Virus genome (UHGV): UHGV-0332040
Source: a virus
Strand: one strand, 5' to 3'
DNA length: 14,032 nucleotides
This document shows, in pieces, positions 3,142 through 14,032 of the stretch. How positions within the stretch are numbered: the stretch's first letter is position 1; the number at the start of each line of letters is the position of its first letter. The position numbers were made by a program, and so were the translations under genes. Under the pieces are notes generated by a model, which had not been told where the DNA came from, did no database searches, and was given only the letters and a program-made list of their open reading frames with translations.

Positions 3142-5031
3142 TCAGAGGAAGCGGGAGATGTAACCCCAATTGCAGTTTTCAGGGCGGTACAACGCTGCCA
3201 GCTCATCAGGTACACCGGACGGCACCGGGGCAGAGTCGGCGTCATAGGTGATGGGGTCGCCATACAGAGCCAACGATGACCACAGCAGAAAAGCACGGGC
3301 AGGTTGACCGTCACGCCCGGCACGTCCGATCATCTGAACTAAATCGGGCAGGTCTTCGGGAACATAAGTGACAATTACGTTACGCACGCCAGAGATATCA
3401 GCCCCCAGCCCGAAGGCTTTAGTAGCAATCAGAACCGCGCCGGGCGTGCTGGCAAACCACGCAGCGTTAGCGTGACGCTGGTCGCGGCTCAGTCGCTCAA
3501 CGTCAGAATGGTAAGGCCGGGCGCGGTCTCCCAGTTCGTTGAGATACGCATACAGCATCTTGATACTGTCCACCATCACCAGCGTCTTCTCATCCAGCGG
3601 GAGGGCATCGACCAGACCAACGGCAGCCCGGCGCGTAGTTGCGCACTGCTGAACAGGAATAAGCTGGATGTTTTCACGGGCAGCACTGGCGCGGTAGGTG
3701 AGGAACTCGCCACGACAGCCAAGCTCTTTCATCAAGCCAGACTCATCACCTTTTCGCAGGGTCGCAGTAAACGCGCACCGCTGAGCATCCGGGAAGGCAT
3801 TTTTCAGGGTGTGTTTCATTGCAGGGAAAGCGTCCCGGAACTCCCATTCATCAACGGTATGAACCTCGTCAATGATAAATCTGTCCACACCAGCGGCCAT
3901 CAGCGCAGCCAGCACCTGATTGCCCGGCACCAGATGCTCAGGTGAAACTACGGCAACGTGGAAAGCGCCAGCAGCCAACCCCGCAAGCTGTTGCGCATTG
4001 CGTCGCCTCGGCAGCTTGTCGCCAAAGGCAACAGCGTGAACGCCAGTTTCTAGCAACTGCTGTAACACCTGCTGCTTGATGGTGTTTGTAGGCACAACAA
4101 TAACGGTCAGACCGTCATCAGAATCAGATTCAAATTGCAGGGCATAGGTGAATGCAGCCGTCTTTCCGTACCCGGTTGGCAGTACGGCCAATACATCGCG
4201 GTCACGGGCAAATACGGCGGCAGCTACGTCCTGCTGGCCGGGTCTCCAGTCTCTGCCATCTAGCGGTGGTAACGGTACGAATGCCGGGCGGTCGCATTGC
4301 TCCAGCTCGCGGAACCTGTACGGCGCGGTAACCAGCGGCGGGATGGACGGCGGCAGGCCAGCACCCCCAACGTCACAATGCAGATTCAGCGTATTGAATT
4401 TATCATCCGTGGGTTTCAGCTCACCGCACCACAACTGACGGAAAGCCGGGCAGTCACCCAGTCGCGTAAAGTCAGCATGGCGCATAGCTTCCAGCTTGCT
4501 CATGCCGCGACTGATACGACGCACGATCTTCTCATCGCAAATCAGAAACTCACGGCAGGCTTTGAGGAAGGCATTCTGCCCGGTTGTCGCTTCCGGGATG
4601 GAGTGCTCGCGCGGTTTAAGCGCAGCGTCATCAACGCGAACGCCGGGGAAATCTGGCGGCAGCGGCTCGGCGTACCGGGCAGGCTTTTTGTTTAGCCACA
4701 TCTCCAGCTCAGCGCGGCGGCAGTGGATTGCATCGCCCGGCTGGATAATCTGGCGCAACCCGGCATCAGCGCGGCGGGAATGTCGCTTGCGGCCAATTCC
4801 ATTCGCCTCTTTCCATTCACGGAACGACATAACTGAACCATCTGCATTGTAGAAATACTGCCCGGAAACGGTGTTAAGCGCTGCCTTCACTGGTCGCTGT
4901 TTAACAGGGCATAACTTGGAATGAGGTATAACGATCTTATCCGCAACCAGTTGCTGAGCATCCGCAGGCTCGGTGTTCAGCGGTTCGGCGTCAGCGGCCA
5001 GCGTAAGCAAGCGGTTTAAATTGGTTGGCAT
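3142..5031 (-). CDS. RecQ-like superfamily-2 DNA helicase with an N-terminal domain of about 260 aa of unknown function
   Basis: 629-aa ORF. Helicase motifs read directly from the translation: motif I LPTGYGKT, motif Ia-like IVVPTNTIKQQV, motif II IIDEVHTVDEWEFRDAF (DExH with the RecQ-type W..FR signature), motif III FTAT, motif VI QMIGRAGRDG. GGAG SD upstream of ATG 5031. Confidence 0.85.
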   Translation of the reverse strand: MPTNLNRLLTLAADAEPLNTEPADAQQLVADKIVIPHSKLCPVKQRPVKAALNTVSGQYFYNADGSVMSFREWKEANGIGRKRHSRRADAGLRQIIQPGDAIHCRRAELEMWLNKKPARYAEPLPPDFPGVRVDDAALKPREHSIPEATTGQNAFLKACREFLICDEKIVRRISRGMSKLEAMRHADFTRLGDCPAFRQLWCGELKPTDDKFNTLNLHCDVGGAGLPPSIPPLVTAPYRFRELEQCDRPAFVPLPPLDGRDWRPGQQDVAAAVFARDRDVLAVLPTGYGKTAAFTYALQFESDSDDGLTVIVVPTNTIKQQVLQQLLETGVHAVAFGDKLPRRRNAQQLAGLAAGAFHVAVVSPEHLVPGNQVLAALMAAGVDRFIIDEVHTVDEWEFRDAFPAMKHTLKNAFPDAQRCAFTATLRKGDESGLMKELGCRGEFLTYRASAARENIQLIPVQQCATTRRAAVGLVDALPLDEKTLVMVDSIKMLYAYLNELGDRARPYHSDVERLSRDQRHANAAWFASTPGAVLIATKAFGLGADISGVRNVIVTYVPEDLPDLVQMIGRAGRDGQPARAFLLWSSLALYGDPITYDADSAPVPSGVPDELAALYRPENCNWGYISRFL

Positions 5032-5052: not shown

Positions 5053-5490
5053 TTAAATACTACGCGCCCAAGCTAAATCTTCGGGTGTCCGACTTTCGAT
5101 TAACGCTAACTGCCAGCGTAAGTAATCCTCATGTTCTTTGGTGTATCGGGGAATACCTATAGGATTTTTCACAGCGTCCGGGTTAGTCCTCGCGACTTCC
5201 CTGCAATCTCGGTCGAAAGCCCAGCGGGCAACTTCCACCGATTCGTAATCCGTAAATCGGTACGGCCTTGTGCGGGAACGTACACGCCAGACAACTTGCC
5301 CTAATTCGTGGATGTATATGCCGCAAAGTTCATCCGGGCTTGGGTGATACAATGGCTCCCCATAATTCTGGCGCATGAACTTCACAAACTTTTGATTGCG
5401 GCGGGCACGCCGTGCTTTTTCGCGTCGCTCCTCGGCTTCATACTCTTTTTGAATGGCGGCACGGTCTACCGGGATAAGTGTTTTGCTCAT
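5053..5490 (-). CDS. Hypothetical protein, 145 aa (first gene of the operon; start revised)
   Basis: The track ORF 5053..5667 has no SD at its first ATG. The internal ATG at 5490 (MSKTLIPV...) has GGAGA 7 nt upstream. Arg/Lys-rich N-terminal region. Confidence 0.55.
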   Translation of the reverse strand: MSKTLIPVDRAAIQKEYEAEERREKARRARRNQKFVKFMRQNYGEPLYHPSPDELCGIYIHELGQVVWRVRSRTRPYRFTDYESVEVARWAFDRDCREVARTNPDAVKNPIGIPRYTKEHEDYLRWQLALIESRTPEDLAWARSI

Positions 5491-5557
5491 ACAGTGATCT
5501 CCAGAAATTAATGTGAGTTTGGAACGGGGCGCAGGACGGAAGCGCCGGGAGTGTGGC

Positions 5558-5756
5558 AGTCTGTCCTCCTTAGTAGTTACCATCATTGCAATGGCGTCGG
5601 AGTTCTGTCTCTCTTTAGTAGTGATCTTCATCCAGTAATTTGGATTAAATGCAGACACGGCGGGCATTGCAGCGAGATGGAGAGTAGGCGGGCTTGCGGT
5701 TTCAGTCTGCCTTAGTACAAGTTTCTAGTGGTCGGTAGCCTTTCCCTTATTAGTAG
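5558..5756. repeat. Iteron/operator-like direct repeats with TTAGTA(G/C) core in the operon leader
   Basis: Plus-strand copies: AGTCTGTCCTCCTTAGTAG (5558-5576), GTTCTGTCTCTCTTTAGTAG (5602-5621), AGTCTGCCTTAGTAC (5704-5718), plus a core-only TTAGTAG at 5750-5756. All lie upstream of the operon start at 5490. Confidence 0.5.
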
Positions 5757-6024
5757 CTCTCATTTATCCGGGGCTTGTCTTCCCACACAGTAGCCGTCTT
5801 CTAAAGCAACCACACCACAATCCACTACTGGCAAGGAGTTAGCAGACACGGTGATGTAGGCTACTCAAGTGTGGATTTGTAGGCGTTTTATAGTATCTGT
5901 CCTTCTTATTAGACACCTTTAAATTTCATTAATAAATACAGTTAGTTAAACGGTTATCTTTATTACTTATAAATTTCACAGATCAATAAATTAAAATTGA
6001 TCGGAATTATCAGCTTTAATTTTC

Positions 6025-6053
6025 TTGACAGCTATTTGTATAATGGTTTTAAG
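6025..6053 (+). promoter_or_regulatory. Sigma-70 promoter-like hexamers in an AT-rich island (TTGACA 6025-6030; perfect TATAAT 6039-6044)
   Basis: Both consensus hexamers are present but only 8 bp apart, so they cannot belong to one promoter. TTGACA could pair with TTTAAG (6048-6053, 17-bp spacer), or TATAAT with a weak -35 upstream. No plus-strand ORF follows. Confidence 0.25.
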
Positions 6054-6222
6054 AAGTTGTATCGGAGTGAGCGACTGGCAGTGAGCGTAGCGAACGATAA
6101 GCCAGTCGGCGAAGAACGAAGAGTATGAGATGACTTGTCATCGAATACGATGAGTGATTGAGCGGTACGAACGGAGATACGCTGTATAACAGTTAGAACA
6201 GTTAACAAGCTGATTAATGCTT

Positions 6223-6387
6223 TCAATGATTATCTGAATCAGTGTTATCAATTCCGAAATAACTCTTCCTCTCCTGTATTGATTCAATCATTTCTTTCAT
6301 TTCAAGAATCACTACCAGCTCAGCTAATAACCGTCTCAGTTCAACATTTGAATCATTAGCACGACACTTATTTTCTGAGTATTCCAT
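6223..6387 (-). CDS. Small hypothetical protein, 54 aa, in AT-rich island (not in supplied ORF track)
   Basis: ATG at 6387 with GGGAG SD 8 nt upstream; translation MEYSENKCRANDSNVELRRLLAELVVILEMKEMIESIQERKSYFGIDNTDSDNH; AT-rich codons unlike the neighbouring genes. Confidence 0.3.
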   Translation of the reverse strand: MEYSENKCRANDSNVELRRLLAELVVILEMKEMIESIQERKSYFGIDNTDSDNH

Positions 6388-6479
6388 ACGGTCAACTCCC
6401 TACGGTATAAGTCCATTCCAATCCGTTCACAGATTACATTGCTGAATGATCATCAGACAAGTGGCAGTCATCATCACCA

Positions 6480-6800
6480 AGTTAGAGTCGTCTCGCTACA
6501 TATCCCCGCCGGATTGCCAGCGCGGCTAACACGGTTGTGAGGAGCGCCGAGCATCACAGCGGACGCAGGCCGATGAACGAGCCGTAGGTGAGTGAAAGCG
6601 GACTCGCGGACGCGAGAAGCGCAGCAGCAGGCGGCGACTGATAAACGAGCCAGACAGGTGAGTGCAAGCAGGCGTAAGCACTGCACCGTTGAGAGGTGTG
6701 GAGACGGCGGAACGTCTCCGCGTTAGGGAGGTGGATTTGGGGAGGATGTGCAAGGCACACCTCGCTCCACCCACGGGGTGTCGGTGGGTAGGGGTATAAC
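6480..6800 (+). other. T-depleted, purine-rich non-coding block with tandem repeats and GC hairpins (candidate ncRNA or protein-binding array)
   Basis: Stops in all plus frames; the minus frames are open only because that strand is A-poor. Hand count: 9 T in 6541-6660. Tandem repeat pair 6572-6599 and 6640-6669; palindrome CTCGCG-GA-CGCGAG 6603-6616; hairpins at 6700-6719 and 6769-6789. Confidence 0.35.
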
Positions 6801-6910
6801 GCTAATTGGTTAAGTGTACACATGTACGCTGAAATCATTAAAAGCCTATAGAAACAGCATGTAACCCAGCACCACGACATAACCAATTATCGTTGAACCC
6901 CCTCCCCGGC

Positions 6911-7246
6911 CCCACCCGGAATTTTTCAGTGATGAATCACTTCACAATCTGATCTCGATGTTCATCGTCTGGCACGGCTAAAGCCCCGCCATCTCTTCAC
7001 ATCGAGAGCCGCAAGTAATACGAAAATACATTATAAATCATAGCATTACGACATCGCGCATAACATAACGCTCTGAAATTAATACGAAAGCTGTAGGTCA
7101 TCCATCACCCACAGCCCAGTAACGGCCAGTGCTGGCACCTCATTTGGCTGTAGGTCAGCCCGACCCCACCGCCCAATAACCCCACCCGGCAGCAATGGCA
7201 CGGCACCAGACGCAGCGTAACGATCTCTGAGTTGATAAATCACTTA
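6911..7246. repeat. Cluster of paired short repeats in the C+A-rich non-coding block 3' of the serine recombinase gene
   Basis: CCCACCCGG at 6911-6919 and 7181-7189; TAATACGAAA at 7016-7025 and 7080-7089; GCTGTAGGTCA at 7090-7100 and 7147-7157; palindrome-containing TGATGAATCACTT at 6930-6942 and TGATAAATCACTT at 7234-7246. Confidence 0.45.
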
Positions 7247-7329
7247 GGGCAGCGTAACCCACACCCAACGGCTCACATCCTCGCAGAGAGGCTCACAGAT
7301 CACCTCGTGACATTTCACAGCATCAACCC

Positions 7330-7953
7330 TCAGACGCTGGCAGCCAGCTCACGCTTAATGCGGTAGAACGTTGCCCGGCTTATCCCGGCAGCTTTCATGA
7401 TGCGCTCCGGTTTCACACCCTGCGCCAGCATTTCCCTGACGGTCTCGCGAGCGGCGGCATCCTTCTGACTCCCACGATAAAGCCCCTCAGCTTTGGCTCG
7501 TTCAATGCCCTGCCGCTGGCGCATCAGTCGCGTCTCGTAGTCCACGCGGGCCATTGTAGCGAGGATATCGATCAGCATTGCGTTAACGGCTCTGAGGATG
7601 CCGCTGGTTAGCTCTGACGCGGTTTCGTTCAGCAACTGCCACGAGGTTGGCAGGTCAACGGCGACGATCACCAGCCCCTTATCCTGAATCCTCTGTTTCA
7701 GTGTCGCCCATTCCTTTTGTGTCAGGCGGCTTAGCCTGTCTATGCTTTCGACAAGTAGAACGTCGCCAGCCTCCGCCTCACCCAGCAGGCGCATCAGTTC
7801 AGGACGCTCCAGCCGCGCACCGCTGGCGTTCTCGATGTATCGCGCAGCAATAGACCAACCACGCTCATTAGCGAAATCCTCCAGCGCAGGAACGGCACGG
7901 TCGGCGTGTTGCTCGGCGGTGGATGCCCTGGCATACAGACGAACGTTATTCAT
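7330..7953 (-). CDS. Small serine recombinase (resolvase/invertase family)
   Basis: 207-aa ORF with GGAGGG SD. N-terminal catalytic motif YARASTAEQ (Ser11), LLVESIDRLSRL, and a C-terminal HTH (ISRATFYRIKRELA), typical of resolvase/Hin-Gin-type enzymes. Confidence 0.85.
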   Translation of the reverse strand: MNNVRLYARASTAEQHADRAVPALEDFANERGWSIAARYIENASGARLERPELMRLLGEAEAGDVLLVESIDRLSRLTQKEWATLKQRIQDKGLVIVAVDLPTSWQLLNETASELTSGILRAVNAMLIDILATMARVDYETRLMRQRQGIERAKAEGLYRGSQKDAAARETVREMLAQGVKPERIMKAAGISRATFYRIKRELAASV

Positions 7954-8536
7954 GATTCACCCTCCAAATCTCAGTGAAGTATCACATCCCGACATGAAGG
8001 AGATCACACTTAAAAACCGTGGTCAATAGGGTATAAAATAAATTTGATTGCGACAGCTTAGGCACATCACAATGCGGTATACCCGGATGAGACAGAGACA
8101 GCCAGCGGCAGACTGGCACCGAGTCACAGCAAAACCCCGGCGCACCCAGCGAACGCAGCGCAAAGCGCACACAGGAGATCAGCACGGCACCGCCACGATC
8201 TCGAAATCACAAAGGCGTTGAATCAAACATTGCAACCGCAGCAGTAACCAGCCAGCATTTCGCGCCTGCAACGGTTGTCTCGGATGAGCAAAATCTTAGG
8301 GTTTTCTCAGCGACCCCTGACGCGCGGGCACGCACATGCGCACGGGGGCGCGGGCGAGCTATACAGTTGAGGGAGGGGCAACCATAAGCGTGCAATTTTT
8401 CAAGCCGGGACTTTTAACAGTGGGATTGTGAGGCTATTTTGCATTCAGAGAGTGAGGCTGTAGGGTAGCTCCCCTTGAACCAGATAACGCTAAGCTAACC
8501 ATTTTCCCCACTGCTTAAGCCACTTTGCGTTGACGT

Positions 8537-9037
8537 TCAGCACCCCACAGCAGCATTATCCGGCATCAGAAACGGAATCAGTTTAGTATCACCATGCACA
8601 TATAACGGGTGCATAGGCTCTCCCGTTGCGTTAATTTTAAAACACTTCGTATCTACAGGAAGGAACGCCCGTACTACGGCAGAGCGTTTCAGGTGCCGCC
8701 CTTCATTCCCCCACGCAGCAACAACGATACCAGCACCAGCTATCAATTCTGCCAGATACTTATCATTATCCGCCCCGACAGGCTCCGGGAATCTCATCAT
8801 CTCAAAGCGGTCAGTACACACATACGCGAACAGGTTCGCGATACGTACCCCCCCGAAGCCCCAGCTCTGCGCAAATGAGATACAACGTTTCAGTGTGGGG
8901 TCGTCAAGCTCTGCGTCCGCATACGATGGATTCAAACCGATGAAAAGAGCATAAGGCTTTGCAGCGTCCCACGTTCTGGAAATAGCGTAACGGTACTTCC
9001 CGCACACAGAGAAGATCGCGTCTTTGTTCACATCCAT
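8537..9037 (-). CDS. DUF1643-like protein, 166 aa
   Basis: Translation carries the motif block I recall as characteristic of DUF1643 (CGKYRY...FIGLNPSYADAELDDPTLKRCISFAQSWGFGG). Assignment is from memory of the family signature, not from a search. GAGGG SD upstream of ATG 9037. Confidence 0.55.
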   Translation of the reverse strand: MDVNKDAIFSVCGKYRYAISRTWDAAKPYALFIGLNPSYADAELDDPTLKRCISFAQSWGFGGVRIANLFAYVCTDRFEMMRFPEPVGADNDKYLAELIAGAGIVVAAWGNEGRHLKRSAVVRAFLPVDTKCFKINATGEPMHPLYVHGDTKLIPFLMPDNAAVGC

Positions 9038-9671: not shown

Positions 9672-9920
9672 ATCGCGGTATGACCAGTGGAACGACCGCC
9701 AGCGCTTTGCTAAACTCCCTGTTCACCGTTCAACAAATCGCGGCAACTATCAGGGTAAATAGCGGTACTTTGGTCACATCACCTTAGAGCTAACTCATTG
9801 AGTTATAAGGCTTTTAATGGGCTGGAGCGGGCGAAGGGAATCGAACCCTCATAGCTAACCCATTGAATTGTGAACCAAAATAAGTAATCGCGGTACTTAT
9901 CCCGGTAGTTGGTAGCGGTA
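9672..9920. repeat. Candidate integrase arm-type repeats (ATCGCGGTA / GCGGTACTT family) on both sides of the att core
   Basis: ATCGCGGTA 9672-9680; ATCGCGGCA 9737-9745; GCGGTACTT 9762-9770; ATCGCGGTACTT 9887-9898; GCGGTA 9915-9920. Three copies lie left of the core and two lie between the core and the int start. Confidence 0.4.
9823..9850 (-). other. att core: 28-nt 3' end of a tRNA-Gly gene (T-arm, acceptor 3' strand, U discriminator, CCA); not a complete tRNA
   Basis: Minus strand reads GAGGGTTCGATTCCCTTCGCCCGCTCCA, which matches my recollection of the 3' end of enterobacterial tRNA-Gly(CCC) glyU. No D-arm or anticodon arm is recognisable 5' of it, so it is a fragment. Confidence 0.65.
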
Positions 9921-9938
9921 GATTACAAGGTAATTACC

Positions 9939-11165
9939 ATGCCAATCAAGAAGACTTCTTATCTTTATGCAAACAAAGATGGGATATTCATCTTTCAAAT
10001 CTTTATCCCGGTGTACATGCGCCACTTATGGCACGGGCGGCGCTCACTCAAGAAATCGACAGGCACGCGGGACATCATGCAAGCTCGCATATTCCGTGAC
10101 CAATACTTATTAGAGTTCCGAAAGCTCCAGCTCATGATGAAACCGGATAACCCTATAAACCGGATTCATTCTGCTATTTCAGATCTTCACTTACTGGCGG
10201 GAATATCCAGCGACATTACCGCGCCCGTAACTACTCCAGCAGAACGAGGGAAACCAGCGTCGCCAAAATTGACAGATGTCAGTAAAGAATATGCAGAGCA
10301 ATACAAAGATCGGCGCTCTTATTCCACATTGAGTAAATCCGCTCGCGCTGTATCAGCATTCACTAAATCAACTAAGCGCCCAACAATTACAATAAACGGA
10401 ATCGGGCGGCGGCTCGTCTCTGACTTTCTGAAAGCGAACCAAGATAAGTTTTCCCGGCAGACGATGCAAAACTGGTTAACTTGCTTAGGTACGCTGTACG
10501 ACTTCGCCCGGCGTAAATATGACAATATCGCCCCTGATAATCCCTTTCACGGCCACAATCTGGAAGCCCGTCAGACAAACGAAAGTTACCAGCCGTTTGA
10601 ACCGCACCAGCTACAGACATTAACAAAAAAGGCAGGTGACGAAATAAGGGATGTAATAATAATCGGGCTGTATTCCGGGATGCGTCTTGATGAAATAGCC
10701 AGCATTAAACGGGATGAGGTTGTCACCATCGACGGCGTGCGGTGTTTCTATGTCAGTAAATCAAAAACAAAGGCGGGTATAAGGCATGTCCCTGTACACT
10801 CGCTGTTATTTGACATTGTTGATAAATACCTCGCGCAAAACAGCGGGGAGTACCTGCTCCCCCAATCCAACAAAATTAAACGCGCGGATGGTAAACGTGG
10901 GCCGTGGTATTCTCAGACATTTACCCGCTTACGTCGCCGGGTACTACCAACAGCCACAGAGCGCCAGTGTTTCCACTCCCTGCGTGGTCACTTCATCACC
11001 TGCTTAGACCGGGCAGGTGTACCAGAACAGCGCATAGGAGCTATTACCGGGCATACAGAGAAAAAGGCAAAGACGGAAGCATTTAAAACGTACAGCCAAG
11101 GGGCTGGGATGAAAGAACTATCTGAATACGTAGAGCTGGTAAGTTATCCAGAACTTGAATCATAA
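9939..11165 (+). CDS. int: Tyrosine recombinase / phage integrase
   Basis: 408 aa from ATG 9939 (AAGG SD 9 nt upstream); the track start at 9909 is a TTG. C-terminal catalytic region has GMRLDE (Arg), HSLRGHFIT (H-x-x-R...H) and a C-terminal Tyr in FKTYSQG. Lies 89 nt from the tRNA-derived core. Confidence 0.85.
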   Translation: MPIKKTSYLYANKDGIFIFQIFIPVYMRHLWHGRRSLKKSTGTRDIMQARIFRDQYLLEFRKLQLMMKPDNPINRIHSAISDLHLLAGISSDITAPVTTPAERGKPASPKLTDVSKEYAEQYKDRRSYSTLSKSARAVSAFTKSTKRPTITINGIGRRLVSDFLKANQDKFSRQTMQNWLTCLGTLYDFARRKYDNIAPDNPFHGHNLEARQTNESYQPFEPHQLQTLTKKAGDEIRDVIIIGLYSGMRLDEIASIKRDEVVTIDGVRCFYVSKSKTKAGIRHVPVHSLLFDIVDKYLAQNSGEYLLPQSNKIKRADGKRGPWYSQTFTRLRRRVLPTATERQCFHSLRGHFITCLDRAGVPEQRIGAITGHTEKKAKTEAFKTYSQGAGMKELSEYVELVSYPELES

Positions 11166-11167
11166 TT

Positions 11168-11596
11168 TCAGGCAGGGTAAATAATCCCCAGCCCGCGATA
11201 CTGGCGGCGGTATTCTCTGACCAGAGCATCCGCCGTCGCCCTCGGCAGCTTCGCCATATGCCCGGTACGATAGCCACCCTCGGCAGAATTCGCTGCACGA
11301 TGTACAACAGCCCGCACGCGCCCGGTTCTGTGGTCGTGGTCGAGGGTCGTGCTGCTGAACGCAACAGCCCGCCCGGTAACGGCACACCGTCGATACTGAT
11401 AATTCCACAGAAAGCAACGCACCGCAGCCACGTCAGCACGGCGCAACTCCAGTCGCCCTGAACCATTCAACAGGAGGCGATACACATCGTCGAATGCAGC
11501 AGCGTTTCTAACGCGCTCAGCCAGCGGCATATTGCCAAGGAACTCCAGATAATCCCGCATTGCTTTTCTTAAAAGTTGGTCTGTCCGTGTAACCAT
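11168..11596 (-). CDS. Endonuclease VII-like (recombination endonuclease VII family, HNH-type) protein
   Basis: 142-aa ORF with GGAGA SD; motif CAVTGR...LDHDHRTGRVRAVVHRAAN resembles the DHDH-x-TG-x-VRG core of T4 EndoVII-family proteins. Confidence 0.55.
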   Translation of the reverse strand: MVTRTDQLLRKAMRDYLEFLGNMPLAERVRNAAAFDDVYRLLLNGSGRLELRRADVAAVRCFLWNYQYRRCAVTGRAVAFSSTTLDHDHRTGRVRAVVHRAANSAEGGYRTGHMAKLPRATADALVREYRRQYRGLGIIYPA

Positions 11597-11868
11597 GATT
11601 CAAAGTCTCCATTGTCAGACACAGCCCGCTTGCAGGCTTCGTATTCTTCGCGCTGGCGTTGGCATACCAGAGCATAAAGCTCATCAGCCACCGCATTTAC
11701 GCGCCTATCACTGATACCGTTGCGACGCATCTGCCCCAGCAGCTTACGAAATTCAGCCTCAAGCTCAGGCTCTCCTGTATCCATTACCCACTGTTTCAAG
11801 TCAGCGAGTGCGCCAGTCATTGGCGGCGGCTCGATGTACCGCCACCTTAATTTAATCGTCAAAGCCAT
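11569..11868 (-). CDS. Hypothetical protein, 99 aa (start revised to second ATG)
   Basis: AGAGGA SD directly abuts the first ATG at 11874, so the second ATG at 11868, 6 nt further, is the likelier start. Overlaps both neighbours on the same strand. Confidence 0.5.
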   Translation of the reverse strand: MALTIKLRWRYIEPPPMTGALADLKQWVMDTGEPELEAEFRKLLGQMRRNGISDRRVNAVADELYALVCQRQREEYEACKRAVSDNGDFESWLHGQTNF

Positions 11869-12277
11869 AAGCATTCCTCTTTATATCGTTTGCTCTCGCT
11901 TCACTGGCTTGTTTAAGCGTCATTCCTTCGATAGCTATATCCAGCAGTTCCTTTTGCTTACCAGCCAATCGCAAGGCGCTGTCTCTCCAGCAAAGCAGAA
12001 AGAAGATTGTCAGCACCTGTTTACTCAATCCATCCAGAAGATCGCCAAGTCCTTGATCCAGCAGACAGGCACGCCATGCAGCAGCGTGCTGCGTCATAGC
12101 ACCGACTATCGGGATAGGTGCGCCAAGCATCGTCGCAAGCTGACTCATAACACTATTAGCATCGCCCGGATGCAGCCGGGGAATAGTCATGCGGCCAGCC
12201 TGCGCCAACAGCTCGGCGTACCTCTGGCGACGTGGGTCATCACATGCCAGCGGTTTAATTGGCTTTTCATCAGCCAT
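11852..12277 (-). CDS. Hypothetical protein, 141 aa
   Basis: ATG at 12277 with GGAGG SD 9 nt upstream, immediately after the TAA of the HNH gene. Confidence 0.55.
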   Translation of the reverse strand: MADEKPIKPLACDDPRRQRYAELLAQAGRMTIPRLHPGDANSVMSQLATMLGAPIPIVGAMTQHAAAWRACLLDQGLGDLLDGLSKQVLTIFFLLCWRDSALRLAGKQKELLDIAIEGMTLKQASEARANDIKRNAYGFDD

Positions 12278-12295
12278 ATATGGAACCTCCGAGGA

Positions 12296-12823
12296 TTAGG
12301 CAGCCTGCAACAAATCGGCTGGCGTTGAGGGATGGTATCTGGCTTTAGCTTTTAGATAGGCAGCACGCGCCGCCGCTTCGGTTGTGAACAAGCCAAGGTG
12401 ATGGCGTACACCATTAACGCGAATGTAAGCCTCCCATTTACCAGAACAAGAATGACGGCTATATCCCTTCGCTTTGCGGTAGTTGTGCTGATTCTCCTGC
12501 GGTGTAACAGCGCGGAGGTTGCCCGGTCGATTATCGGCACGTACAGCGTTAATGTGGTCGATTTGCAGACCGTCAGGGATACCACCATTAGCAATGATGA
12601 AGGCCACGCGATGCGCATAAATCGAGTGCGTCCTGCCGTCGATGCGGACAGACACGCGCCGATACCCGGCGCTGTCCGTTGCGGTGTCAGCCAGTTCCCC
12701 GGCCTCAGCATAAATCCGCTTGTTGATTCCAATTCGGTCTACTGCATGGAACAGGCGGCCAGTCTCCGCATCGTATCGAAATAAAGAGCGTAGCAGCTCA
12801 GGGGCGTAAGCATCATTAACCAT
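12296..12823 (-). CDS. HNH homing-type endonuclease with AP2-like DNA-binding domain
   Basis: 175-aa ORF with GGAGGGG SD. HNH_3-type block GYRRVSVRIDGRTHSIYAHRVAFIIANGGIPDGLQIDHINAVRADNRPGNLRAVTPQENQHN, and an AP2-like C-terminal block SGKWEAYIRVNGVRHHLGLFTTEAAARAAYLKAKARYH. Confidence 0.8.
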   Translation of the reverse strand: MVNDAYAPELLRSLFRYDAETGRLFHAVDRIGINKRIYAEAGELADTATDSAGYRRVSVRIDGRTHSIYAHRVAFIIANGGIPDGLQIDHINAVRADNRPGNLRAVTPQENQHNYRKAKGYSRHSCSGKWEAYIRVNGVRHHLGLFTTEAAARAAYLKAKARYHPSTPADLLQAA

Positions 12824-12839
12824 GACTCAGCCCCTCCAG

Positions 12840-13835
12840 TTACACAGCTTGTCGGAAATTGATAACGCAGTCAGGGCGGCGCAGTCCAACATTGAACAGG
12901 CGATATGAGTCCATCACCATCGTCATTTCGCGCTCATCATCCCACTGGCGATTGATAACGCTCTGCGCTTCGACTGTCACAAGTACAGACGCAGGCCGGA
13001 ACAGCGTCGCCCGCGTCAGCGCTTCCTCTGAGGTAACGTCATAATCAGCGCCCAGTTCATGCCCGGTAATAGCTTCCTGCGGGTAACTGTTCAGCTCAAT
13101 GACTCGTACCCCAGCGACATAGCCAACTCGACGCCATGCGTAATCGTTGCCACTATCCCGGCTGTAACGGACGTTCATCAGCTTCTTATGTTCCATCAGG
13201 ATGCTGAACCAAGCCGGGTCGATAAGCAGTACCAGCTCGGCCACCGGAATATCTTTCTCAGTGAGAAAGCGATTAGCAGCCGCTTTTACGACGTGAGCCA
13301 ATTCGTTTGCGGCGTCCTCTTCGCTCCCCGCTGTCAGGTCGAGCGATACAACGTTATCCGTTAGTGGGTTAAACGTTGGTTGCAGTGTCGGCGGCGGTAC
13401 AAAGTCAGTCGCTTTGATTAGCTGGATGGTGTGCGCTTCGTCGTAGAATTTAGCGTGAGCAGTACCCATATTGCGGCTCAGCTCTGCGCGAAAGGTGGGC
13501 GCTGTCCAGTCGTCCTGATAGTCAATCGGAATGCGGATATAGCTCAGCGTATCCACAGAGATAATCAGCTTATCCGACTTAACAGCGGTAGGCTCCAGCG
13601 ATTGCCCTGCGGTTCTGCCCTTCACCTCCAGATCACCACTCAGGCGATCAATGCGGTATTGGTTGCTGGCTTTCAGCGGCCTGTATGTAGACAGCCCCTC
13701 TGCCAGAAATACGGATTTGGACTCTAAACGGGTCTGGACATCCCGGTCATAAGCCTCGATGTGAATATCATTGTCGGATTCCACCCCGCCATAATGTGGG
13801 CGAAACAGATCGGGACTGTACGAAGTATCAGTCAT
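12840..13835 (-). CDS. Major capsid protein, T7 gp10-like (HK97-fold family); start revised
   Basis: 331 aa from ATG 13835 (AGGAG SD 8 nt upstream). Several blocks align by eye with my recollection of T7 gp10A: KLIISVDTLSYIRIPIDYQD vs KVITIDGLLTADVLIYDIED, LLIDPAWFSIL vs FYCDPDSYSAIL, C-terminal YRLFNVGLRRPDCVINF vs YAMGHGGLRPEAAGAVVF. Not search-verified. Confidence 0.55.
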   Translation of the reverse strand: MTDTSYSPDLFRPHYGGVESDNDIHIEAYDRDVQTRLESKSVFLAEGLSTYRPLKASNQYRIDRLSGDLEVKGRTAGQSLEPTAVKSDKLIISVDTLSYIRIPIDYQDDWTAPTFRAELSRNMGTAHAKFYDEAHTIQLIKATDFVPPPTLQPTFNPLTDNVVSLDLTAGSEEDAANELAHVVKAAANRFLTEKDIPVAELVLLIDPAWFSILMEHKKLMNVRYSRDSGNDYAWRRVGYVAGVRVIELNSYPQEAITGHELGADYDVTSEEALTRATLFRPASVLVTVEAQSVINRQWDDEREMTMVMDSYRLFNVGLRRPDCVINFRQAV

Positions 13836-14032
13836 AAACAAAACTCCTACGTAGGTTGATGAAGCCCGCGCCATCGTCATGGCACAGACGTGCGGAATCC
13901 TCCCGCCGAGGCAGGATTCAGAACGGTATCGATTAAAGGGATGAGGTGCCCCGAAATGGGCGTTTTGAGGCCAGAGCTGGCGCGGTTCTCAGAGGTTAGT
14001 GCGCGTGAAGTAAGGCGAACGTATTACCTTGC

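Follow-up and report, generated by a model that had tools for sequence, protein, structure and literature searches.

Single-subunit RNA polymerases of the T7 group act on short promoters, among them those of T7 (TAATACGACTCACTATAGGGAGA), T3 (AATTAACCCTCACTAAAGGGAGA) and SP6, and the specificity loop of a T7-type enzyme reads the promoter at about -8 to -12. The primary replication origin of T7 is built from two such promoters in tandem, phi1.1A and phi1.1B, together with an AT-rich region. In the satellite P4 the late promoters Psid and PLL are switched on by Ogr, the activator of its helper P2. For phage KP34 strong promoters with the sequence T(A/G)ATGTTACAGGAGTA have been verified at 475-490 near the left end, at 22197-22212 directly behind the polymerase gene, and at 33721-33736 (PMC6834552). 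Described satellite families, including P4-like elements, PICI, cfPICI, PLE and PICMI, are small (~11-14 kb) and tRNA-integrated with an integrase, and they combine some morphogenesis genes with a variable cargo slot and mimicry of helper cis-acting signals (PMC10085698, PMC10803314). The literature searched, of incomplete coverage, contains no description (an absence that is weak evidence of novelty) of satellites of Autographiviridae, or of satellites driven by helper single-subunit-polymerase promoters, and the same incomplete coverage yielded no description of Bonnellvirus promoters or transcription starts.

The repeats described here, which precede the main operon of a chromosomal satellite, are, judged from the sequence, most likely tandem promoters, five to six in number, for the single-subunit T7-type RNA polymerase of Bonnellvirus-like podophages. 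The window, by which we mean the whole 14,032-nt stretch of DNA that was analysed (UHGV virus genome UHGV-0332040), is by its gene anatomy a tRNA-integrated phage satellite. Positions 5400-6500 match a stretch of the E. coli 5735 chromosome at 100% identity and segments of four further E. coli chromosomes at 86-94%, and the helicase encoded in the operon has relatives in Enterobacter, Trabulsiella and Rosenbergiella. All related loci share one gene order, with the element next to a tRNA gene in each: an integrase, an endonuclease VII-like gene, two small genes, an HNH gene, the capsid gene and about ten small genes including the DEAD/Helicase_C helicase are followed by a nearly gene-free stretch of 1.4-1.8 kb, a small serine recombinase and variable cargo. 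The element thus resembles the described families in its size, its integration at a tRNA gene, its partial morphogenesis functions, its cargo slot and its copies of helper cis-acting signals; it differs from them in its gene set (capsid, scaffold-like protein, HNH, endonuclease VII, DEAD helicase and small serine recombinase) and in that its apparent helper is a podophage of the Autographiviridae. Among the ORFs searched, the recognised morphogenesis-type genes are restricted to those for capsid, scaffold-like protein, HNH and endonuclease VII; the same ORFs yielded no recognisable gene for an RNA or DNA polymerase, a portal, a terminase or a tail, nor the full packaging module that characterises cfPICI (small terminase, portal, protease, capsid and head-tail connectors).

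Two features of the overall arrangement are recorded here in their own right. In the window, comparing 9909-14032 with 1-415, the integrase, endonuclease VII-like, HNH and capsid genes follow the recombinase and a DUF1643 gene, and in E. coli 5735 they sit at the other end of the element; from this placement the window comprises either a tandem pair of satellites or one that is circular or permuted. Behind the recombinase lies a slot that is occupied by DUF1643 here (8537-9037), by a TIR-domain protein in E. coli N18-04097 (L002, 10861-12000) and by other hypothetical proteins elsewhere, a variety consistent with a defence or cargo hotspot.

The gene context of the repeats is roughly as the initial annotation had claimed, with about ten co-directional minus-strand ORFs running from 5490 and the DEAD/Helicase_C protein among them, and, as it also stated, a divergent repressor gene is absent. 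The following features define the start of the operon and the DNA beyond the array.

5491-5562, minus strand: untranslated leader, conserved, with the Shine-Dalgarno sequence GGAGAT preceding the ATG at 5490
5053-5490, minus strand: first operon gene, encoding a 145-aa protein, hypothetical in E. coli 5735
3142-5031, minus strand: second operon gene, the helicase (Pfam DEAD 1.5e-19, Helicase_C 4.6e-14)
5925-6024, no strand assigned: AT-rich block with sliding-window GC down to ~0.38-0.40 and with direct and inverted repeats inside

The 145-aa protein has no Pfam or PHROG match and no detected Rep-type domain. The leader sequence TTTCTGGAGAT is present in eight of the twelve sequences searched. 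A simple scan of the operon strand of the leader for sigma-70 promoters and terminators found nothing, an Rfam E-value scan and a tRNA scan of the window gave no match in the repeat region, the 456-nt leader RNA folds no better than shuffled sequence (z +1.31), and BLAST of 5400-6500 against phages returned no match. Alternative gene calls were considered and set aside: a 204-aa ORF at 5053-5667, which extends the 145-aa gene at its N-terminus and overlaps two of the repeats, meets deletions of 38 and 49 nt in relatives, and both this extension and the small ORFs compare poorly with the conserved Shine-Dalgarno sequence and ATG at 5490, the 145-aa gene itself being missing in some relatives.

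Within 5563-5924 there are six copies of the repeat, every one on the minus strand and thus in operon sense, in an array that is non-random. Each unit is ~26 nt long and reads WWATGARRG, a variable triplet, CTAC or CTAA, TAAGG and a purine-rich start. The units are listed from the operon outwards, with their minus-strand segments.

5563-5588, minus strand: S1, promoter-like unit, caATGATGG TAA CTAC TAAGG aggac, with a predicted start near G5569
5608-5633, minus strand: S2, promoter-like unit, ggATGAAGA TCA CTAC TAAAG agaga, matrix score 9.4
5705-5730, minus strand: S3, degenerate unit, caCTAGAAA CTT GTAC TAAGG cagac, in which the downstream half alone is retained
5740-5765, minus strand: S4, promoter-like unit, aaATGAGAG CTA CTAA TAAGG gaaag, with the triplet CTA of the Kc261/usur type
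5777-5802, minus strand: S6, weak promoter-like unit, agAAGACGG CTA CTGT GTGGG aagac, matrix score 7.9
5899-5924, minus strand: S5, promoter-like unit, atTTAAAGG TGT CTAA TAAGA aggac, matrix score 13.0, with the triplet TGT of the megetsur type

The corresponding minus-strand sequences are ATGATGGTAACTACTAAGGAGGACAGA for S1, ATGAAGATCACTACTAAAGAGAGACAGA for S2, CTTGTACTAAGGCAGAC for the partial copy S3, ATGAGAGCTACTAATAAGGGAAAGG for S4 and TTTAAAGGTGTCTAATAAGAAGGACAGA for S5, the last of which lies at the edge of the AT-rich block. The initial annotation had reported direct repeats at 5558-5576 (CAGTCTGTCCTCCTTAGTA), 5602-5621 and 5704-5718 and a core TTAGTAG at 5750-5756; these four are present as described, but the copies at 5777-5802 and 5899-5924 had been overlooked, and the 15-20 bp core, although real, is part of a unit that reaches ~12 nt further, with ATGARRG and the triplet upstream of CTACTAA on the minus strand. 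The hexamer TTAGTA occurs six times in the 14 kb, four of them inside 5570-5755, and three of the four minus-strand occurrences of CTACTAA in the window fall in the array. Start-to-start spacing is irregular (45, 97, 35, 37 and 122 nt), no dyad symmetry or inverted-repeat structure was found within the units, and the triplet cores of the window, from the outermost unit towards the operon, are TGT, CTA, CTA, (CTT), TCA and TAA. S3 and S1 have TACTAAGG..CAGAC in common, and S3 is read as a decayed copy: in one register only it scores -0.4, far above the window mean of -31.3 (sd 10.1), yet its upstream half is not promoter-like.

The nearest counterpart of these units is a motif that recurs in the genomes of Bonnellvirus-type phages. 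The motif was sought after the satellite repeats had been seen, with a matrix built from phage sequence only, iteratively and without satellite input, from annotated and recurrent sites in six full phage genomes; an unbiased search for intragenomic 18-mer repeats had proved too noisy at 15 of 18 matches and was replaced by this approach. The matrix, which takes in a few weak phage sites, converged on about five near-identical strong sites per genome at matching positions in all six: one occupies the gap that precedes the primase module, one immediately follows the polymerase gene, one marks the start of the second gene beyond the polymerase, one falls within the internal-virion-protein gene, and one lies on the opposite strand close to the end of the genome. 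The motif reads WWATGARRG, a 3-nt core, CTAC, CTAT, CTGT or GCAC, and then TAAGG, TATGG, TAGTG or TATTGG, and it was also found at two sites each in six further bonnellviruses. Independently, the GenBank record of LIMEzero labels 7294-7313 and 20330-20349 'putative phage specific promoter'. Recurring as they do on the coding strand of polymerase-encoding genomes, the phage sites are putative promoters, and their placement is similar to that of the strong promoters of KP34 (PMC6834552).

Taken together, the satellite units other than S3 match this motif better than chance would give. The phage-only matrix places S4, S1, S5, S2 and S6 first, second, fifth, sixth and seventh among the 28,014 positions of the window, all within 366 nt and on the operon-sense strand, and five of the nine window matches scoring at least 7 fall inside those 366 nt (binomial 4.6e-8). 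S4 (20.9) and S1 (19.7) exceed anything obtained in 200 Markov shuffles, in which the maximum averaged 9.9 and never rose above 19.5, and S2 and S6 score close to the level that chance can reach. Of the 28,028 19-mers in the window, just six differ from a phage site at five positions or fewer, the closest being S4, with 2/19 mismatches to the Kc261 site ATGAGGGCTACTACTAAGG, and S1, with 3/19 to its nearest phage site; the start of S5, TTTAAAGG, is identical to that of the annotated LIMEzero promoter at 7294. BLAST of the leader against the six phage genomes found no homology, which makes the units stand-alone motifs rather than a piece of phage DNA carried over, and BLAST of a 34-nt repeat unit against phages gave chance Bacillus phage matches only (E ~1).

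Phages of this group differ from one another at the central triplet of the motif. Although six of the twelve phages were sampled at just two sites each, the triplet is constant within the genome as TGT in megetsur, LF82-23, altidsur and BHUENT7, as TGA in ROV85, RZ4 and glasur, as CTA in Kc261 and usur, and as CAA in LIMEzero, and it varies within the genome in Lidtsur (TGA/TAT/TAA) and J8-65 (TAT/TAA/CAT). The polymerases of megetsur, ROV85 and Kc261 are ~90% identical, with a dense patch of differences at alignment columns 688-700 which, on alignment to T7 RNA polymerase chains, corresponds to T7 residues ~745-758 (numbering +/- ~4 residues), the specificity loop. In the phages, where this was tested, the classes TGT, TGA, CTA, TAW and CAA track the hypervariable patch. 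Such co-variation of triplet and loop is what is expected of polymerase-promoter pairs, and it is hard to explain via protein coding, though two of the sites overlap start codons.

The likeness to T7-group promoters has several parts. The predicted sites are short (~17-23 nt), strand-specific and recurrent in the phage genome, with one copy directly behind the polymerase gene; a start-proximal CTACTAA or CACTAAA leads into a G/purine-rich start (GGAGGA here, GGGAGA there), the phage motif CTACTAA followed by GGAAGG resembling CACTAAA followed by GGGAGA in T3; and a 3-nt block at about -10 to -8 differs among related phages and tracks the specificity loop. The differences are that here the copies lie in a chromosomal satellite without a polymerase gene, that five to six of them with differing cores are packed within 360 nt before one operon, and that the upstream half ATGARRG, as predicted from sequence, is specific to the Bonnellvirus/Waewaevirus clade.

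Related satellites carry arrays of the same kind. All ten related loci from Escherichia, Enterobacter, Trabulsiella and Rosenbergiella, which are non-independent samples, have two to five sense-strand sites within 500 nt of the operon start. In six of them (L003, L004, L007 and L009-L011) the 145-aa gene is missing and the leader is joined directly to the helicase gene, and conservation of the flanking leader and Shine-Dalgarno region extends to loci with a different first gene. Conservation of the repeats in relatives had been named as a check in the initial annotation; what is found is that single copies are deleted or their cores swapped while the flanks stay conserved. S1 is gone in L004 and L005. 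The position of S2 is occupied by a CAT-type unit, GAAAGCATCTACAGTAG, in L002, L003 and L009 (4/19 mismatches to the J8-65 site at 32978) and by a CAC-type unit in L004, and that of S6 (~-324) by a TGA-type unit scoring 12.5 in L003 and L009. Cores are replaced by other types in L002-L004, L006 and L007, with the number and position of units kept. Some of these versions approach phage sites closely: S5 of L003 and L009, AAGGTGTCTATATTG, is identical over 15 nt to the megetsur site at 4674, and the L007 unit ATGAAGGCTACTATATTGG has 1/19 mismatches to the Kc261 site at 5847. The cores of L003 and L009 (TGT, TGA, CTA, CAT and TAA) comprise the three main Bonnellvirus classes together with the TAA of J8-65 and Lidtsur sites.

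Evidence on the identity of the helper comes from elsewhere in the element.

12840-13880, minus strand: major capsid protein (phrog_267 at 6.9e-70), which identifies the helper clade
8323-8410, plus strand: mimic of a terminal-repeat boundary, 88 nt, matching phage sequence in reverse orientation at 72-89% identity

The capsid matches 761 phage records and is 50-56% identical to those of Bonnellvirus and Waewaevirus, podophages that encode a T7-type single-subunit RNA polymerase; the best matches are the bonnellviruses Lidtsur, glasur, megetsur, J8-65, Kc261 and ROV85 (54-56%) and the waewaevirus LIMEzero (51%). In the phages the matching sequence runs from the right-hand end of the unique region into the opening bases of the direct terminal repeat. 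Its reverse complement reads CCCGGCTTGAAAAATTGCACGCTTATGGTTGCCCCTCCC up to the boundary and TCAAC beyond it, against CCCGGCTTGAAAATTGCACGTTTATGCTTGCCCCTCCC and TCGAC in megetsur; the phage boundary sequence is CCCGGCTTGAAAATTG...GCCCCTCCC followed by TCGAC, at which the J8-65 terminal repeat begins. A segment matching the mimic is also found in the related satellite L005, and 8323-8410 is probably a packaging or cleavage-site mimic. L005 in addition contains ~265 nt that are 81-83% identical to the phage left end, phage-type promoter included. As the mimic and this left-end stretch show, the satellite copies cis-acting signals of the Bonnellvirus/Waewaevirus clade. Given an identity of just ~56% between its capsid and those of bonnellviruses, the true helpers may not have been sampled and probably lie outside the sequenced phages. 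The exact cores of S1 (TAA with CTAC) and S2 (TCA) occur in no sequenced phage, and an IMG/VR scan for the S1 core ATGARRGTAACTACTA returned 115 stretches, with a single match each among the 80 listed and no candidate helper among those.

Several further sites in and around the nearly gene-free stretch may be noted. At 7992-8017 on the plus strand, the phage promoter matrix gives a score of 13.2 to ACATGAAGGAGATCACACTTAAAAAC, a sequence that L003 and L009 share without change. Situated close outside the recombinase gene, this site is directed at the terminal-repeat mimic 330 nt off, in the relative orientation that the leftward promoter and terminal repeat have in phages. Strong phage-type promoters are present at position 5631 of L005 (reverse complement; score 28.1) and position 4522 of L011 (18.8), just upstream of the array and directed away from the operon, and the one in L005 heads the phage-left-end-like stretch. 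Where these loci have a phage-type promoter (~6020-6050 equivalent), the window has TTGACA-8 nt-TATAAT at 6025-6044; the idea that this is a disguised phage promoter is unsupported by its matrix score of -6.6. It is followed at 6045-6200 by a conserved purine-rich stretch resembling the J8-65 left end in composition. The sole called gene of the 1.8-kb gap is a 54-aa ORF at 6223-6387 on the minus strand, hypothetical in E. coli 5735 and missing or different in several relatives. Positions 6400-6900 are GC-rich (~0.55-0.58) and purine-rich on the plus strand, with implausible ORFs and no Rfam match; they are partly conserved and partly replaced in relatives, and their composition is like that of the phage DNA between leftward promoter and terminal repeat. 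Finally, a noncoding block at ~6930-7160 is near-invariant over five E. coli loci and recurs in those of Trabulsiella and Enterobacter; within it the inverted repeat CTCGATGT...ACATCGAG flanks GGCGGGGCTTTAGCCGTGCC. The block adjoins the serine recombinase gene (7330-7953) and might serve for recombination, act as an origin or encode an RNA.

The initial annotation had interpreted the repeats as replication-initiator iterons or repressor operators. Part of this stands in outline: the repeats are sites recognised by a protein in cis, they lie upstream of the operon and very likely control it, and the protein in question is not encoded nearby. The iteron/operator kind, in the form proposed, is unsupported, because the units match a phage polymerase promoter motif, upstream half included, and all point into the operon, and because the copies differ exactly where phage genomes differ, the opposite of what target sites of a single Rep or repressor would show. 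Origin iterons, bound by an initiator of the satellite such as the 145-aa protein or the helicase N-terminus and melting the adjacent AT-rich block, are nonetheless an arrangement that the locus recalls, and we consider them unlikely. As in plasmid and SaPI-type iterons there are multiple ~20-nt direct repeats in the same orientation near an AT-rich segment, itself a possible unwinding element which has repeats of its own and is located between the array and the rightward promoter-like site, and a helicase gene follows. The irregular spacing is not helically phased, however, and the cores are heterogeneous; copies are swapped and deleted among relatives with conserved flanks; no Rep-family initiator was detected, the 145-aa protein being without a Rep-type domain and its neighbour a DEAD/Helicase_C helicase, though a novel kind of initiator is possible; and a match to a phage promoter motif over ~20 nt in each unit is nothing that iterons need. 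A role in replication is possible as a second function of a promoter array, by analogy with the promoter-driven, transcription-activated origin of T7 and not as an iteron origin. In both cases tandem phage-polymerase promoters (predicted ones here) adjoin an AT-rich stretch, but that stretch is downstream of the promoters in T7 and upstream of the array here.

Less probable still is that the repeats are operators at which a repressor or activator, either a satellite HTH protein (such as 1731-2291 or 2-415) or a helper factor, works with host RNA polymerase. The sites are indeed upstream of the operon, which encodes HTH-like proteins with weak matches that include a 'late transcriptional activator' PHROG (E 0.0018), but the units are not dyad-symmetric, the simple scan of the operon strand turned up no sigma-70 promoter for such a protein to act on, no divergent regulator gene is present, and in phages the motif recurs just behind the gene for RNA polymerase and varies together with the specificity loop of that enzyme. 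The least credible of the alternatives is that the repeats act in the RNA or as coding sequence, as short upstream ORFs (M-K-x-T-T-K-E) or as purine-rich sites where a protein would bind a long 5' UTR. Several units do begin with ATG and could encode short peptides, and AAGGAGG and AAGAAGG resemble ribosome-binding or CsrA-type sites; yet the deletions in relatives are not multiples of three, reading frames are unconserved, AAG replaces ATG in three units of L003 and L009, and the leader RNA is unstructured relative to shuffles and without an Rfam match.

If the array consists of helper-polymerase promoters, as we favour, the course of events would be simple. A helper phage infecting the cell would make its own polymerase, as is established biology of the Bonnellvirus-like phage family. 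By analogy with T7, T3, SP6 and KP34, this polymerase would recognise ATGARRG-NNN-CTAC-TAA and initiate at the G-rich start just downstream, transcribing the operon through the genes for the 145-aa protein, the helicase, the small proteins and the scaffold-like protein and, further along in the complete element, those for capsid, HNH and endonuclease VII. Satellite genes would then be expressed only with a suitable helper present, with no switch of repressor and antirepressor. With less certainty, the differing 3-nt cores of the array may broaden or safeguard the range of helpers. Such a system would be like that of P4 and P2 in that a satellite operon depends on the transcription machinery of the helper, which is sensed directly; it would differ in that the helper of P4 is temperate and the factor P4 relies on activates the host polymerase, whereas in the present case a virulent T7-like phage would be the helper, the polymerase recruited would be that of the phage itself, and the array combines several promoter specificities.

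A stronger version, possible but slightly short of probable in our view, is that the array is a multi-helper sensor, each unit tuned to the polymerase class of another helper lineage (TGT, TGA, CTA, CAT, TAA, TCA), so that one satellite could be induced by several co-evolving pairs of polymerase and promoter and keep up with them, and that it marks, with the terminal-repeat mimic, a family of satellites of virulent Autographiviridae not described before; in addition, the array may be a decoy for the polymerase or a transcription-activated origin. Lidtsur and J8-65 tolerate variation of the triplet within one genome, so differing triplets need not mean differing polymerases.

Promoters of phage polymerases are already known as elements; the satellite family appears undescribed. 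T7-like phages are virulent and shut the host down fast, and their support of satellites is unreported in the literature searched. If the reading of the array as helper-polymerase promoters is true, it would reveal a family of satellites that parasitises T7-like phages, and with it a very direct induction switch in which the helper's polymerase reads satellite promoters and no repressor takes part. It would also suggest that a satellite can extend its helper range, and keep it, through stacked promoters of differing specificity, and would provide natural sets of promoter variants for phage polymerases from a clade that has been little studied, possibly of use as orthogonal expression parts. 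The helper range of these satellites would then become testable from sequence alone.
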